Of a stretch of DNA of 64,000 nucleotides, positions 8,595-63,818 are shown piece after piece. Each line of letters begins with the position of its first letter. Position 1 is the stretch's first letter. Made by a program: the position numbers and the translations under genes. The notes under the pieces are model-generated. The model was not told the origin of the DNA and made no database searches. It saw nothing but the letters and a program-made list of their open reading frames with translations. Source of the DNA: a virus (lineage: Duplodnaviria > Heunggongvirae > Uroviricota > Caudoviricetes); the IMG/VR virus record IMGVR_UViG_3300031867_000007, positions 64,001-128,000 of that record, one strand, 5' to 3'.

Positions 8595-8978
8595 TTATTG
8601 CTCTTCCCCATATAATCTTCTATCTTCTTCTTCTCATTCTTTCTCTTTCATCATTATATAACTCATAATTTCTTCAGGCGTATATAATCTCAATTCATTA
8701 GTATTATATTTTGGATGAAAAATATTAATCCATTTTAATACTTTATCATATAGCTCTTTATCTATCTTACTTCCATTAACTCTTTCTAATACAACTATAT
8801 CTTTATCTCATTCCATATCAACTAATAATCCACCCAACTCTTTATTTCCATCCATATCCGCTCTTCACATTCCATCTTCTCCTATACCCACATCAAGCAA
8901 CTCACTCATTTGATAGATATTTATTCATATTATTTCTCTATCTTCATTCATTGCTCCATATATCTCTATATTATCCAT
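8595..8978 (-). CDS. hypothetical protein (4 in-frame TGA)
   Basis: AAAGGAG RBS; 128-codon ORF only if TGA is sense. Confidence 0.65.
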
Positions 8979-9116
8979 ATTATATCTCTCCTTTATATTC
9001 TTCTTAGACAAAATAAGCAAAAGTAATTGAATTTAGACAAAATCTATATTTTGACATCAGCAGTAATATAATATATATACTGGTGATGTCAAGTGCTAAA
9101 AATTGTCTAAATTCAA

Positions 9117-9878
9117 TTAAATTGCAAACCCATTAATATCTGCGGAAGACCCTACACAATATACATCTTCTCCATCACATACATTCTCTTTATGATAAAT
9201 AACTAAATTATTTTCTTGTAACAATTTTTTACTTTCTCTTATATTATATTCAGTTAATCCAGTTAATTGTTTAATATCTTCAACAGTATAAGGCTCTTTG
9301 TTTTTTAAATACATTGCGGCAGCTATTATTTTTGTTAATGGAACTCAATCTTTTTTATGATTAATTTCCGCAATTTCATGACACTTCTTAATAACATCTA
9401 ATTGCAAATCAACTATTTTTTTCTCAGCTTGTCTGCGGAGACCAATAATAAAATAATCATCCGTATCTTGTGCAAATAAAATGTGCCCCTTATTTTTCAA
9501 ATTCTCAATAGCCTGTCTAATAGCCCCTAAATTTGCGGCAGTAGCCCTCTTATCAAGATACCCCGCCAACATTTTATAAGTACCCCTAAATACTAATTCA
9601 GGTTTAGCTAATAAAACTATTAAAATCATAAACTCTCATAATTCTAACCCTATCATTTCTGAATCTACATAAAATAATGTATTTCCTTCTTCTTTATATA
9701 AAGTCATAGCCCTAGTATTATTATCAAGAGACTCTAAATATTCTGCGGAACTGCCTCTACCAACTTTAATTATATTAACCCCGTATTTTTTTAAAATTGT
9801 TTCTTGTGTTCTTTTAAATTTAGTTAAAACACTAGATTGTGCTATATTATATTTACTACATAACTCTTCTAATGACAT
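9117..9878 (-). CDS. putative DNA-binding protein (2 in-frame TGA)
   Basis: Three track ORFs in one frame joined at TGA (ELWEF, KDWVP); HTH-like segments. Confidence 0.7.
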
Positions 9879-10190
9879 ATTAATTACCTCCATTATTATA
9901 TTAAAATTTAGACATCTTTTTTGTCTAGATTTACCCACAAATTTTGTTTATTTTTGTTTGAAATCAATACTTTTACTTAAAATCATGAATAAAATTTTTT
10001 GTCTAAATTTATAAAATAAAGAACTTCGATTTTTTAAGATTTCATCGTACTTACAACAAAAAAGAGCGTCTTTAAAAAACGCCCATTTTTTAACAATATA
10101 AAAAATCTATTCCTCTAGCCCCATATCTTTTCTAATATTCGGAATTATTTTCTCAATTTCCGCGATGTCTACTTCATTATTTCATCAATT

Positions 10191-10415
10191 TTAATCTTCA
10201 TTATCATACCCCGCTGTTTTTATAAAGATTTTAGCAATAGTATTTCTATCATAAAATCTTACTTTTCCCTTTATATCAGTGAAACAAATAGCATTTCCAT
10301 TTAAACTGTCATTTATTTGATCACTAACATCTTTTATACGAAACGAAGATGAGATTGTAAAAATTTCTGGAATAAGATGCAACACTTTAAAAATAATAAT
10401 CCTATATCTATTCAC
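10191..10415 (-). CDS. hypothetical protein
   Basis: ORF overlapping the upstream stop. Confidence 0.6.
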   Translation of the reverse strand: MNRYRIIIFKVLHLIPEIFTISSSFRIKDVSDQINDSLNGNAICFTDIKGKVRFYDRNTIAKIFIKTAGYDNED

Positions 10416-10860
10416 CCTTCTTTTTCCTCCTTTGAATTAAATCTATTTTAAAACTCTCCCCGTTTAAATCAAAAGTAACAATCTTTGTTTTATTCTCGAT
10501 GCGGCAATTGCTTACACCCTCTAATGCGGAAACGCAATTAAATAGCTCTAATATTATACCCTCTTTTGTTGGATTTTCTTTTGGAGCTCTTTCTATTTTC
10601 TTTCTCTCTCTTGTTTTATCTTCAGCTTTATGAATGGTTGCGGTGATGCGATTTTCTTTTGCCTTTTGAGTTAATTCTTCTTGTTCGTCATTTATTTCAT
10701 ATTCTTCGTCTTCTAGATAAGTTAATACAGCTTCGTCCATATCAATATCTAATGCGGAAATCATGCTGTCTAAATAACTTTTCTCAACTCTAACAATTTT
10801 ATCATTATCTAAAGTAATATTAACATATCTACCATTAACTTCATAATTTTTCATACACAT
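10408..10860 (-). CDS. hypothetical protein, paralog family B
   Basis: Similar to 7104..7538. Confidence 0.75.
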   Translation of the reverse strand: MCMKNYEVNGRYVNITLDNDKIVRVEKSYLDSMISALDIDMDEAVLTYLEDEEYEINDEQEELTQKAKENRITATIHKAEDKTRERKKIERAPKENPTKEGIILELFNCVSALEGVSNCRIENKTKIVTFDLNGESFKIDLIQRRKKKGE

Positions 10861-60408: not shown

Positions 60409-60419
60409 GAGGGTCAGTA

Positions 60420-61955
60420 ATGGCAGAATATATAGATACAACATCAATAATTCAAGTAATAGGATGTATTTATCAAAATCCTAATTTATTAGATGATGAA
60501 AAATATTTTTTCAATGAAGATGACTTTACGCAAGAGTTTCATAAAATATTATTTGGTTCAATTTATAATTTACATGCTCTTGGAGCAAAAGAAGTAAGCA
60601 TCAATACAATAGAAGACTATTTGAAAGATAGATCAAAAAGTTTGGCTATTTATAAAACATATAAAGGAAATGAATATTTACAAAAAATAAGTGAAAATAT
60701 ACGATTATCTACTTTTGATTATTATTATCAAAGAATGAAAAAAATGACATTGTTACGTATGTATAATCACGCAGGAGTAGATTTAAGTTGGTTATATGAT
60801 ATTAATAATATCTTAGATATAAAAAAGAAACAAGCTCAGGAAGATTGGTTAGATAACACATCTCTTGATTCAATAGCAGATTTAATTGATAAAAAAATTA
60901 CTGAAATAAGAATGAAATATGTTGATGACTCAAATGAAGATTTTGTTCAGGCTGGGGAAAGAATGGATGAATTAATTGAAAATTTACAAAAAAGACCTGA
61001 AGTTGGTTACCCTATGTATGGACCTCTTATTAATACAATTACTAGAGGTGCACGTTTAAAGAAATTTTATTTAAGATCTGCAGCAACTGGTGTTGGAAAA
61101 ACTCGTAGTATGATTGCTGATTCTTGTTCAATAGCTTGTGATAAAATATATGATTCAGCTCAAGAAAAATGGATTGAAAATGGAACAAAAGAACCTACAA
61201 TGTTTATTACAACAGAGCAAGAGGTAGATGAGATACAAACTATGATGTTAGCATTTTTATCAGATGTAAATGAAAATCATATTATATATAACGCTTATGA
61301 ACCAGGAGAATTAGAGCGAGTATTATATGCAGCAGAACTTATTAAAAAATGTCCATTATATATTAAAAAGCTACCTGATTTTTCAATGAAAGATATAGAA
61401 AATACTATAAAATTTGGTATTCATGAATGAGATGTTAGATACATCTTTTTTGATTATTTACATACATCAATGAAAATCTTAAGCGAAGTAACTTCTAAAA
61501 CAGGTATAAAAGGATTGAGAGAAGATAATGTTTTATTTATGATTTCAATTAAATTAAAAGATATATGTAATGAATATGGAGTTTTTATTCTTACAGCTAC
61601 TCAACTTAACGCGGATTACACTACCGCTCAACAATATGACCAAAATTTATTACGTGGTGCAAAATCAATAGCTGATAAAATAGATTGTGGTTTAATTATG
61701 TTAAAAACAAGTAAAGAAGATAAAGAAGCATTAAGAGAGGTTATAGCTAGATTTAAATTTGAAGAACCTGTAATTAAAATTTCAGTTTATAAAAATCGTA
61801 GAGGTCAATATAAAGATATTTTATTATGGTGCAAAGCTAATCAAGGAACTTGCCGCGTTATACCTATGTTCTGTACTGACTATAATTATCAATTAATAGA
61901 TTTACCAGATTTAAAAATTAATGTATCAACAAAATTACAAGCTTCTGCCTTTTAA
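60420..61955 (+). CDS. dnaB: DnaB-like replicative helicase (1 in-frame TGA)
   Basis: AATGVGKT, TEQ, FFDYL, ATQLN, KNRRG; TGA at 61428-61430. Confidence 0.9.
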
Positions 61956-62016
61956 AATACTTCTAGTTGATTATATTAACAAAATATTATATAATTAATA
62001 AAAGGAATTAAATAAA

Positions 62017-63117
62017 ATGGATAATTTAAAAGAATGGTCTGAAAGTATAAAAAACAGTTTGACATTAGAACAAATAAAAGATTTATTATATGCTCTTGGC
62101 GGAGATCCGCAGTTAAAAGAAGATTGTATTATATCTAGAACAATTTGTCATGGTGGTCATCAGCATAAATTATTTTATTATGATAATACAAAATTATTCA
62201 GATGTTATACTGAATGCTCTGATACTTTTGATATATATGATTTAATTATAAAAAATAAAAAAAATGAAGGTATTAACTTTACATTATATAAAGCTATTCA
62301 ATTTGTAGTTACTTTTTTTAATTTGACATTTTCTACTGAAAATTTTTCATTTGATAACGAAGAAATAAGTGATTGGCAAATTCTTAATAAATATGAACGA
62401 AATAGTTCTAAAGAAAAGCAAGAGAGGATAGTTGAGTTTAAATTTTATGATAATAAAATTTTAAAATATTTACCAAGACCAAAAATACCTATGTGGTTGA
62501 GAGAAGGTATATCGCAAGAAGCCATGAATAATTGCGGGATTGCATTTGATCCAGTTTCATGGGGAATAGTAATTCCGCATTATAATATAGATGGAAAGTT
62601 AATTGGTATTAGAGAAAGAACTTTAATCAAAGAAGAAGAAAACAATGGTAAATATAAACCTGCAATACTAAATTATCAAATGTATAATCACCCATTAGGT
62701 TTTAATTTATATAATTTAAACAATAGTAAAGATAATATAAGAAAAATAAAAAAAGCAATTATATTTGAGGGTGAGAAAAGTTGTTTATTATATCAATCTT
62801 ATTTCGGTATGGATAATGATATAAGTGTTGCTGTGTGCGGAAGTAATTTAACGAATTATCAGGTTCAACTTTTAAAAAATTTAGACGTAGATGAAATAGT
62901 CATAGCATTTGATAAAGATTTTGAAAAAATAGGGGATGATAGATGAAAAAATCAAATAACACTATTAAAAAATATTAATATAAAATATTCTAAATATATA
63001 CAAATTTCTTTCTTATGAGATAAAGAAAATAATATTTTATCTAAAAAAAAGTCAAGCCCAATTGACGAAGGAAAAGAAAAATTTATAGAATTATTTAAAA
63101 GGAGAGTAACTTTATAA
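62017..63117 (+). CDS. DNA primase (2 in-frame TGA)
   Basis: Zn-binding CH..C..C; TOPRIM FEGEKS and AFDKD. Confidence 0.88.
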
Positions 63118-63818
63118 TGGGTAAATTGTTAGACTTAACTGGAAAACATTTTGGCAGATTAACTGTAATAGACAGAGCTATTAATGAGGGAAAAGAAGTT
63201 CAGTGAAATTGTATCTGTGAATGTGGAAATAAATGTATAGTAAAAAGAAGAGATTTACAAACCGGTCATACTATGAGTTGTGGATGTCTTAGAAAAGAAA
63301 ATACAATCAAGAATAATAAAAAATTAAAAATGAAAGATTTAACTAATAGAAAGTTTGGTATGTTAACTGCAATAGAACCATTAAACACAAGAGACTATGG
63401 GTGTATTGTTTGAAAATGTAAATGCGATTGTGGAACTTTTACTAATGTTAGAGGGACATTATTAACTCAAGGATTAATTCAATCTTGTGGATGTCAGAAA
63501 TCTAAAGGAGAATTATTCATTAAAAATTGACTTTTTAAAAATAATATCCCTTTTGAACAAGAAAAAACTTTTGATACTTGCCGTTTCCCTGATACAAATT
63601 TCTTAGCTCGTTTTGATTTTTATATAAATAATTCTTTTATTATAGAATATGATGGAATACAACATTTTATAAATAATGATAAATGAAAAAACTTAGAATA
63701 CATAAAAAAACATGATAAATATAAAAATGACTGATGTAAAAACAATAATATTCCATTATATCGTATAAATTATAAAGAGAATATAGAAACAAAATTAAAT
63801 GAGATATTTAAAAATAAG
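63117..63818 (+). CDS. putative homing endonuclease, CxCxCG repeats plus PD-(D/E)XK (several TGA)
   Basis: DLTG..FGRLTV..[W].C.CECG..SCGC twice; RFDFY..IEYDG.QH. Confidence 0.8.

Follow-up and report, generated by a model that had tools for sequence, protein, structure and literature searches.

In-frame TGA codons read as tryptophan and a split suppressor tRNA with two anticodon arms in a Caudoviricetes phage

In-frame TGA encodes tryptophan in the phage whose genome (Caudoviricetes, IMG/VR record IMGVR_UViG_3300031867_000007) includes the 64,000-nucleotide (nt) stretch analyzed here, which we call the window and which carries a split gene for a tRNA-Trp(UCA) with a second anticodon arm. We cautiously favor the reading that TGA is translated in a host that is likely walled and of standard code, by means of this tRNA made early in infection: its UCA anticodon would decode UGA, and the CCA triplet in its second arm would likely serve as a handle for the host tryptophanyl-tRNA synthetase (TrpRS). 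The structure of this putative two-anticodon suppressor is conserved and its homologues are active; the handle role of the CCA arm is proposed. Recoding of TGA, its bias among gene classes and the idea of a switch of code have already been published (Borges et al., bioRxiv 10.1101/2021.08.26.457843), and the two-arm tRNA is the addition made here.

The window comprises bases 64,001-128,000 of a 143,829-nt record (27.8% GC; 97% complete by CheckV; classed as linear). Genes were called with a codon model in which TGA was forbidden as a gene end, which gave 170 genes in the record, 87 of them in the window; 73 of the 170 contain in-frame TGA. We assigned gene classes (virion/lysis, endonuclease, replication/nucleotide, and the rest) from PHROG labels and position. 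Relatives were compared as loci (L numbers) and genomes (G numbers), and as the loci share ancestry, counts across recoded loci are not independent events.

TGA encodes tryptophan

The share of the window covered by open reading frames (ORFs) of at least 100 amino acids is 0.545 with code 11 and 0.681 with code 4. For the full record the values are 0.586 and 0.791, and 0.628 when TAG is read through, a reading that was rejected because it gains so little. By this simple measure the record exceeds the gain of more than 5% in coding density that is used to assign code 4; an earlier note, made from the sequence alone, had proposed this comparison as a check. That note had also placed TGA at tryptophan positions in about 20 genes of the window. 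The actual figure is 26 of 87 genes (49 TGA, 151 TGG), and the motifs that it named are present (AS-W-TGGYG at 23076, MRL-W at 30307 and KYG-W-DNF at 39415), together with TGA codons in the helicase DnaB (61428) and the primase (62944 and 63016).

For alignment, every TGA and TGG was masked as X and the proteins were aligned to loci L006-L209, which gave usable homologous columns for 64 of the 194 TGA sites. The 1,553 codons aligned at these sites include 938 TGG, 310 TGA, 147 tyrosine, 88 phenylalanine and a single glycine codon. TGG is the commonest non-TGA state at 44 of the 64 sites, four sites hold TGA only, and 16 are led by another residue, mostly in fast-evolving endonucleases with few homologues; at control TGG sites, TGG leads at 96 of 119. 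The TGA site of DnaB, followed across 61 loci, is occupied by TGG in 32 and by TGA in eight. Alignment with glycine, which the earlier note had named as evidence to the contrary, was limited to that one codon, and a glycine reading of TGA was rejected.

Six genes of the window have a TGA at most 12 codons from their end, in one case (29016-29795) directly before TAA. Gene ends in TGA are found in 3 of 486 cases in recoded relatives versus 64 of 337 in loci without in-frame TGA, which indicates that the clade holds both codes.

A split tRNA-Trp(UCA) with a second anticodon arm

The phage tRNA(UCA) supposed in the earlier note exists, and it is detected only when introns are allowed. ARAGORN without introns and Rfam both miss it, and a relaxed Rfam search finds only its 3' part, below cut-off. 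The elements of the locus, all on the minus strand, are as follows.

34175..34203, promoter-like element (TTGATT, 17 nt, TAAAAT), 30 nt upstream of the tRNA, by consensus match
33449-34145, whole split gene for tRNA-Trp(UCA), by ARAGORN with introns allowed
34113..34145, exon 1: 5' strand of the acceptor, D arm and first anticodon stem, to U34, by ARAGORN and sequence
33509..34112, intron of 604 nt, predicted group I type, between U34 and C35, ending in G, placed by intronless homologues
33626..34087, intron-encoded PD-(D/E)XK endonuclease with a GTG start and TGA at codon 23 (Pfam PF11645, E 2.7e-16)
33449..33508, exon 2: rest of the UCA arm, second arm, T arm and 3' strand of the acceptor with G73
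33479..33495, second anticodon arm at the variable-arm position: 5-bp stem and 7-nt loop with CCA at 33486-33488

The joined exons are identical to the intronless gene of L055 at 87 of 93 positions, and their minimum-energy structure is a four-arm cloverleaf (-31.9 kcal/mol). Between the UCA arm and the T arm lies the second arm, a 5-bp stem with the loop CU-CCA-AA that is flanked by four bases on either side; G73 is at 33450 and the 3' CCA is not encoded. TrpRS recognizes the anticodon bases and G73 (PMC9976931), and the tRNA presents UCA in the first arm, CCA in the second and G73. The promoter motif family seen upstream recurs at 34973 and 35925.

A search pattern that named only the D arm and the UCA arm matched 26 viral and five genome-bin loci, every one of them with the extra arm, a count that is bound to the pattern. 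Conservation was then counted in 27 distinct homologues, with the arm placed by geometry alone, as the distance from the T stem. The second arm has CCA in 27 of 27, U33 in 26 of 27 and G30 in 27 of 27, and retains A37/A38 and a 7-nt loop. Of the 108 cells for its four scored stem pairs, 106 are paired, where shuffling gives 65 on average and 81 at most; the stem letters vary freely, and three of the four pairs show two-sided changes. An alignment of 34 rows (A1), three of them chosen on both loops, has 98.5% of cells paired and two-sided changes in 18 of 25 pairs. This conservation and covariation led us to reject a tandem-duplication accident or an assembly artefact as the source of the arm. 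The tRNA resembles tRNA-Sec(UCA) and class II tRNAs in its extra arm and length of about 95 nt, and the former also in its anticodon, but differs from them in its fixed CCA loop and in the spacers on either side of the extra arm (3-7 nt before it, 4 nt behind it). A tRNA-Sec was rejected on the geometry of a 7-bp acceptor, 4-bp D stem and 5-bp T stem, and the tRNA-Sec-like long arms among the matches have no CCA loop. An exact 29-nt pattern had no match in viral contigs, none of 50,697 records of cultured phages covers 80% of the two-arm tRNA, and a literature search at title and abstract level, with most subscription journals outside it, found no description of a naturally occurring tRNA that has two anticodon arms.

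The intron is predicted to be of the self-splicing group I type. The 5' exon ends in U and the intron in G, and we take motifs at 33616 and 33569 to be those of a group I core. Group I introns interrupt the anticodons of bacterial tRNAs, in tRNA-Leu(UAA) for example between U34 and position 35; they share with this one the insertion after U34, a short predicted P1, the terminal G and a PD-(D/E)XK endonuclease. Here, in contrast, the host gene is a UGA-reading phage tRNA, the ORF lies near the 5' end of the intron, and the Rfam group I models give no match at gathering thresholds or at E values up to 5, which insertion of the ORF may explain. The same intron occupies the same site in five viral loci, with endonucleases 72-77% identical. 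The tRNA gene is uninterrupted in 26 viral contigs, and since most relatives lack it, the intron is likely a mobile passenger. One contig of the run X2 joins 33508 to 34113 exactly; we counted it as an intronless allele, not as a splice product.

Splicing could instead be a purpose-built timer of the code change, as the UCA anticodon exists only after it, the ribosome-binding site of the endonuclease seemingly overlaps the predicted P1 guide (which we place by analogy with tRNA-Leu introns), and the endonuclease itself contains a TGA. We consider this very unlikely, given the 26 uninterrupted genes against five with the intron, an intronless allele in which the exons are joined exactly, and the mobility gene carried by the intron.

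Other interrupted genes lie nearby on the minus strand. In a tRNA-Ser(UGA) at 32331-32883, intact in relatives such as L010, a PD-(D/E)XK endonuclease gene with one TGA (32393-32821) sits in the anticodon-loop region; the flanking arms can pair with each other, no ribozyme core was seen in the insert, and the 3' flank repeats the loop part TCAAA, so that the anticodon would be UCA after one of the possible joins. Another tRNA-like gene, which has U73 and for which ARAGORN proposes the anticodon CUA, is split at 24455-25172 and holds a GIY-YIG endonuclease gene (24493-25065, three TGA), again with no ribozyme core seen. The serine hydroxymethyltransferase gene, of which intact homologues of 444 amino acids exist, is split by a group I-like intron (27562-28432) whose GIY-YIG ORF (27603-28250) has no TGA.

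The recoding literature asks how phages without a synthetase get a suppressor tRNA charged, and published activity data bear on this. Seki et al. (bioRxiv 10.1101/2025.10.30.685624; PMC12636597) assayed 31 phage UCA tRNAs in Escherichia coli extract without added synthetase, with controls at 5,403 relative fluorescence units (RFU) for no tRNA and 69,124 RFU for wild type. We sorted the tRNAs of their data sheet by eye into 13 with two arms, as in this phage, 12 credible single-arm tRNAs and six doubtful ones. All 13 two-arm tRNAs suppress UGA, at 26,699-58,947 RFU or 39-85% of wild-type green fluorescent protein, versus two of the 12 credible single-arm tRNAs above 25,000 RFU (28,797 and 50,795) and background for the doubtful six. 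Medians are 48,745 and 8,653 RFU for the two-arm and single-arm classes (Fisher p=2e-5, a value that overstates independence, the 13 tRNAs being related and the classes assigned by eye). At least half of wild-type signal is reached by 11 tRNAs in our count of the sheet and by nine according to the paper. The second arm of UCA-5 is identical to that of this phage, and UCA-3 equals L033 letter for letter, by eye; the DnaB encoded on the L033 contig is 89% identical to that of this phage. The D arms of three two-arm tRNAs (UCA-4, -20 and -26) are different, so the design is not tied to one tRNA body. The authors report insertion of tryptophan by 13 tested tRNAs, a set that need not coincide with the 13 two-arm ones. 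Their main text uses the terms "variable arm" and "variable loop" zero times and pursues a single-arm pair, AP1, that needs its own TrpRS.

Amber suppressors in the same table offer a parallel. Of 162 amber tRNAs, at least 20 show by eye a long arm with an anticodon of glutamine, CUG or UUG, in its loop, which suggests that the second loop changes with the amino acid; many amber tRNAs with a single arm are active as well. One amber tRNA, tRNACUA-44 (PMC12636597, file 2), combines the same body with a CCA second arm and is active at UAG (56,217 RFU). A conserved second loop that agrees with the inserted amino acid lends itself to a cheap and direct test, and the published activities already sort by arm type. 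If the handle role holds, the anticodon identity of a tRNA could be moved to its variable arm, a novelty in tRNA recognition that could help in designing suppressors.

Several points weigh against the favored reading and its handle for TrpRS. Besides the relatedness of the 13 active tRNAs, six single-arm tRNAs share the D arm and missed our search pattern by one base. The variable arm points away from the contact of TrpRS with the normal anticodon, and the handle would thus call for a refolded tRNA or for a new way of binding. Single-arm tRNA-Trp(UCA) was found in 43 of 59 viral loci by a single-arm pattern, with a TrpRS gene at most 6 kb away in only four of the 43, and in a sample of Bacilli eight genomes of about 0.8 Mb, among the matches listed, have single-arm UCA tRNAs; the second arm would therefore be one solution among several. 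Nor is it strictly needed, since UCA-18, a single-arm tRNA of similar body, equals the two-arm tRNAs in activity and the Bacillus subtilis TrpRS is cited as working with a plain UCA variant (PMC2965240). Finally, the promoters discussed below are matches to the sigma-70 consensus.

The arm may have another job altogether, such as stability, slower rejection at UGA in competition with release factor 2 (RF2), a lure for modification enzymes, a decoy for anticodon nucleases, or the reading of UGG in an alternative fold. Single-arm UCA tRNAs can after all be charged, the lack of any separate tRNA-Trp(CCA) match in the record fits UGG reading, and U33, A37/A38 and the 7-nt loop are features that any anticodon-binding enzyme would see. 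We hold such a job to be rather unlikely: CCA is fixed although a normal tRNA-Trp(CCA) is also present in 9 of 14 loci and in both bacterial genomes described below, stability requires no fixed triplet, and the loop switches to glutamine anticodons in amber tRNAs.

Uneven use of TGA, the host and the proposed course of decoding

The genes on which the following comparison draws are these.

Before the window, minus-strand block: terminase, portal, tape measure, tail genes and amidase endolysin
787..7538, plus: cluster of small TGA-free genes, most with their own strong sigma-70-type promoter
8595..8978, minus: gene of unknown function, 4 TGA and 1 TGG
22858..23880, minus: M23 peptidase (Pfam PF01551, E 1.7e-32), TGA at 23076, barely within the region of the catalytic domain
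38744..39565, minus: GIY-YIG-type homing endonuclease (PHROG 314), 6 TGA and 2 TGG
43681..44934, plus: RNA ligase (Pfam PF09414), 0 TGA and 9 TGG
48841..55749, plus: split type II topoisomerase genes and split NAD-dependent ligase (PHROGs 543, 551 and 3869), TGA-free
53441-53698: small unrelated ORF with one TGA inside that region
60420..61955, plus: DnaB-like helicase (PHROG 19), TGA at codon 337 of 511
62017..63117, plus: primase (PHROG 47), TGA at codons 310 and 334 of 366
63117..63827, plus: HNH-type endonuclease (PHROG 374), 5 TGA and 0 TGG
After the window: DnaE

TGA accounts for 194 of the 461 tryptophan codons of the record (about 40%), and its share is far from uniform in the tabulation by gene class that the earlier note had proposed: 93 of 152 (61%) in the virion/lysis block and 35 of 57 in endonucleases, against 21 of 98 (21%) in replication/nucleotide genes and 45 of 154 in the remainder. 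Of 51 genes with at least four tryptophans, 16 have no TGA where 3.3 are expected, and the observed unevenness was reached in 0 of 5000 permutations. Five other NNA/NNG codon pairs are flat across all classes (0.84-0.97 A-ending), so composition fails to explain the bias. The tryptophan-rich genes that the earlier note had listed as using only TGG are borne out by their TGA/TGG counts: RNA ligase 0/9, gyrB 0/4, the N-terminal part of gyrA 0/4, ligA 0/10 and the first 8 kb 0/15, along with 0/6 for the gene at 1555-2277. The protein at 18593-20113 (0/9) belongs here too; its label as a TROVE protein could not be reproduced, its matches being Pfam DUF2828/DUF7788 and a PHROG annotated as "RNA-binding protein".

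Strong sigma-70-type motifs, identified by consensus match, are intergenic in 44 of 46 cases in the record, and only one lies in the virion block. The promoter family TTGACA/TTGATT-17-TATAAT stands before single small genes (window 787-17767 and 36732-61967), with 20 members in the first 16 kb of the window; the cluster at 787..7538 holds candidates for the earliest genes, as judged from these motifs and from its lack of TGA. The 32 first genes behind promoters, a class set without function labels, use TGA in 10 of 59 tryptophan codons (17%) versus 184 of 402 elsewhere (p=1.7e-5).

The same selectivity is seen in relatives, tallied over 60 recoded loci out of 152 with alignments. TGA is avoided in ligA (0/155), ssb-like genes (0/76), the N-terminal part of gyrA (0/39), sak4 (2/76) and DnaE (21/353), and used in the gene before the terminase (100/149), the sigma-like gene (61/122), the terminase (61/138) and RecJ (48/111). 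The putative major capsid protein, which is our own label for an unnamed PHROG, and two neighbouring head genes are TGA-poor (2/44, 0/18 and 4/70). In this phage 11 of 29 replication/nucleotide genes carry TGA, among them DnaB, primase, RecJ, Dda and nrdD/nrdG, while DnaE, ligA and gyrase are TGA-free; another TGA-bearing gene, with no family match, is presumably thyX-like. Replication therefore likely needs readthrough, and a pure late-gene gate is not supported, as DnaB and primase need it. Thus the idea of a code switch during infection, as the earlier note had put it, stands in part: the TGA/TGG ratio is non-uniform, promoter-linked genes are TGA-poor and standard-code relatives exist, but a gate restricted to late genes fails. 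Since replication genes carry TGA, the tRNA has a host-type promoter and the putative capsid protein avoids TGA, the code change appears to come early.

A sigma-like gene (PHROG 5767) with four TGA codons lies at the head of the virion block outside the window (L004:15176-16072, minus strand). It has no Pfam match and no solved relative below E 0.17; it is a candidate for a single checkpoint of late transcription and, by its PHROG label, a putative activator of late genes.

It is quite possible, although we do not favor it, that the distribution reflects cost and not timing, with RF2 active throughout and TGA purged from early and bulk genes while drifting in elsewhere under AT pressure. The low TGA content of the putative capsid protein, its head-gene neighbours and DnaE despite their differing timing is consistent with this, as are a TGA share that never reaches the A-ending share of other codon pairs, selfish endonucleases as TGA-rich as virion genes, and the absence of a release factor match in the record. 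The low-demand genes ligA and gyrA-N are nevertheless fully TGA-free across relatives, genes of the promoter class are depleted even in comparison with non-virion genes (10/59 versus 92/252, p=0.003), and all nine closest copies of the sigma-like gene carry at least two TGA codons. Such a cost can coexist with decoding by the two-arm tRNA, the pattern may owe as much to expression level as to timing, and it fits two pressures, one on genes needed before the tRNA is made and one on bulk genes while RF2 competes.

As to the host, the endolysin is a wall-cutting amidase with peptidoglycan-binding domains, which argues against a wall-less Mycoplasmatales host. The nearest terminases of named cultured phages, at about 45%, are from Enterococcus, Geobacillus and Alicyclobacillus phages, all of which infect Bacillota; the best amidase matches of the endolysin are Faecalibacterium and Streptococcus phages at 48%, and most matches are Actinomycetota phages. 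GyrB is 27-35% identical to all five genomes tried and points to no host, and a single 651-nt query from the tmRNA region gave nothing useful for the host in five genomes. Phage-like contigs with the two-arm tRNA were binned with prfB-positive Bacilli and Lachnospiraceae genomes, binning being weak evidence. TrpRS, RF-1 and PCRF have no match over cut-off in the 97%-complete record; the search for a phage release factor that the earlier note had suggested thus yielded none in the record, with a PCRF match (E 0.17) inside the tape measure gene remaining below cut-off. A protein at 41700-42380 (plus strand, one TGA) has a weak CodY-like C-terminal match (E 8e-6), also below cut-off.

Bacterial copies of the tRNA bear on the host as well. 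Code-4 taxa in GTDB include Mycoplasmatales and two Eggerthellaceae genera (PMC13695967), and walled code-4 gut bacteria of the Eggerthellaceae have been described, the genus given by the accession prefix of L052 being reported as largely code 4 (PMC13462651). Two code-4 Eggerthellaceae genomes carry the two-arm tRNA on the chromosome (L051:4597-4692 in G001, L052:4024-4119 in G002), amid genes for a formiminotransferase, a glutamate symporter, a glycosyltransferase and a phosphotransacetylase, several of which contain in-frame TGA. Neither genome has a prfB match over cut-off, both retain a normal tRNA-Trp(CCA), and their ORFs use TGA at 30 of 64 and 6 of 6 tryptophan codons. They are the only two-arm matches among 339 Eggerthellaceae genomes; G179, also without a prfB match, has a single-arm tRNA (L219). 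The bacterial two-arm body is identical to viral L029 at 54 of 62 positions and to the resident CCA tRNA at 41 of 62, and the chromosomal UGA-reading tRNAs of L051, L052 and L219 are closer to phage tRNAs than to their own tRNA-Trp(CCA). In a tree built without the tRNA-Sec-like rows and a single row that was mis-parsed, L051 and viral L029 fall together (SH-like approximate likelihood ratio test, 95), and the approximately unbiased test does not reject grouping with resident CCA tRNAs (p=0.378, 63 columns). Transfer from phage to Eggerthellaceae is suggested by these comparisons, and the copies would mark a route from phage to cellular code change. The two genomes share this phage's tRNA, but their reassignment covers the whole cell; the paper on walled code-4 bacteria proposes duplication of the resident tRNA-Trp(CCA), and in its accessible text the words "phage" and "variable" occur zero times (PMC13462651).

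These genomes raise the possibility that the host is already code 4, for instance an Eggerthellaceae, with no switch and with uneven TGA use reflecting expression level and gene history. That would explain why no release factor or TrpRS was found in the phage, and all 11 terminase loci at 85% identity or more are recoded. We nonetheless regard such a host as distinctly unlikely. The near-zero TGA in ligA, gyrA-N, ssb-like and sak4 genes of relatives would have no clear cause without RF2, ORFs of code-4 bacteria use TGA freely, as given above, and 23 of 39 loci at 70-85% terminase identity have no in-frame TGA; the Bacillota hosts of the named cultured relatives and, as weak evidence, the prfB-positive bins point the same way.

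Under the favored reading of a two-anticodon tRNA in a standard-code host, infection would proceed in four steps. Host RNA polymerase would likely transcribe TGA-free genes and the tRNA gene from the sigma-70-type promoters suggested by the sequence. Splicing would then remove the predicted intron and produce the anticodon UCA. Charging would fall to the host TrpRS, acting through G73, the acceptor stem and, in a putative role, the CCA loop; close homologues have been charged in E. coli extract in published work. Once charged, the tRNA would contend with RF2 for UGA codons, which we propose because no phage release factor was found, so that the helicase, primase, packaging, tail, lysis and endonuclease genes would become readable once it accumulates, and the earliest and most abundant proteins would stay TGA-poor.

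Related recoding systems and further observations

The phage works like the Agate-type recoders. Borges et al. describe TGA-recoded Agate phages of about 127 kb with bias toward structural, lysis and intron-endonuclease genes and a switch model, and the present phage shares their size class, low GC, TGA read as tryptophan, gene-class bias (93/152 and 35/57 versus 21/98), standard-code relatives, suppressor tRNA without synthetase and proposed code switch. The Agate representative GiantTortoise_AD_1_scaffold_344 has a two-arm tRNA of the same family (UCA-10 of Seki et al.), and L002:6078-6554 has a match to PF05405 at E 6.7e-4, below cut-off, which may correspond to the membrane protein annotated as "ATP synthetase B chain" in the Agate lysis cassette. 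The accessible text of Borges et al. describes no second arm or tRNA intron, both of which are seen here. Replication genes of their representatives are in standard code, a feature that they report as variable across clades, unlike the TGA-bearing DnaB, primase, RecJ and Dda of this phage. Their detection rate for TGA suppressor tRNAs was just 35% across code-4 genomes, and an intron such as this one gives one reason for so low a rate; reliance on host synthetases is offered by them as a hypothesis. The "code change module" of their Jade clade (tRNA, TrpRS and RF1) has the same outcome, UGA read as tryptophan, but this record has no TrpRS or release factor match. A TAG-recoded relative has also been described (PMC10607447).

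More speculatively, a tRNA whose two jobs are divided between a ribosome-facing and a synthetase-facing anticodon arm could be a plug-in changer of codes that works without any new enzyme, arisen in phages in parallel for UGA as tryptophan and UAG as glutamine, with one phage copy having enabled genome-wide UGA reassignment in code-4 Eggerthellaceae. We regard this as a tentative possibility and somewhat doubtful.

Diverged copies of nrdD, 82-89% identical, lie at both ends of the record (G000:C1 19-2467 and the last 6 kb), so the ends may be a mixed assembly, by which the window is unaffected. Within the window, gyrB, gyrA and ligA (48841-55749) are each broken into at least two ORFs with short gaps or overlaps between them. 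Two small TGA-free paralogue families without PHROG matches, their N-termini alike by eye, stand mostly behind host-type promoters; one has four copies (5173-5553, 6414-6803, 11114-11488 and 40503-40889) and the other two (7113-7538 and 10408-10854). RNA elements include a tmRNA with the tag ANTELVAA (35188-35544, minus), a YrlA-like Y RNA below cut-off (35751-35865, minus), a skipping-rope RNA (25300-25414, minus) and an HDV-type ribozyme (11842-11915, minus), which together with the TGA-free RNA ligase look like a set for ribosome rescue and RNA repair.

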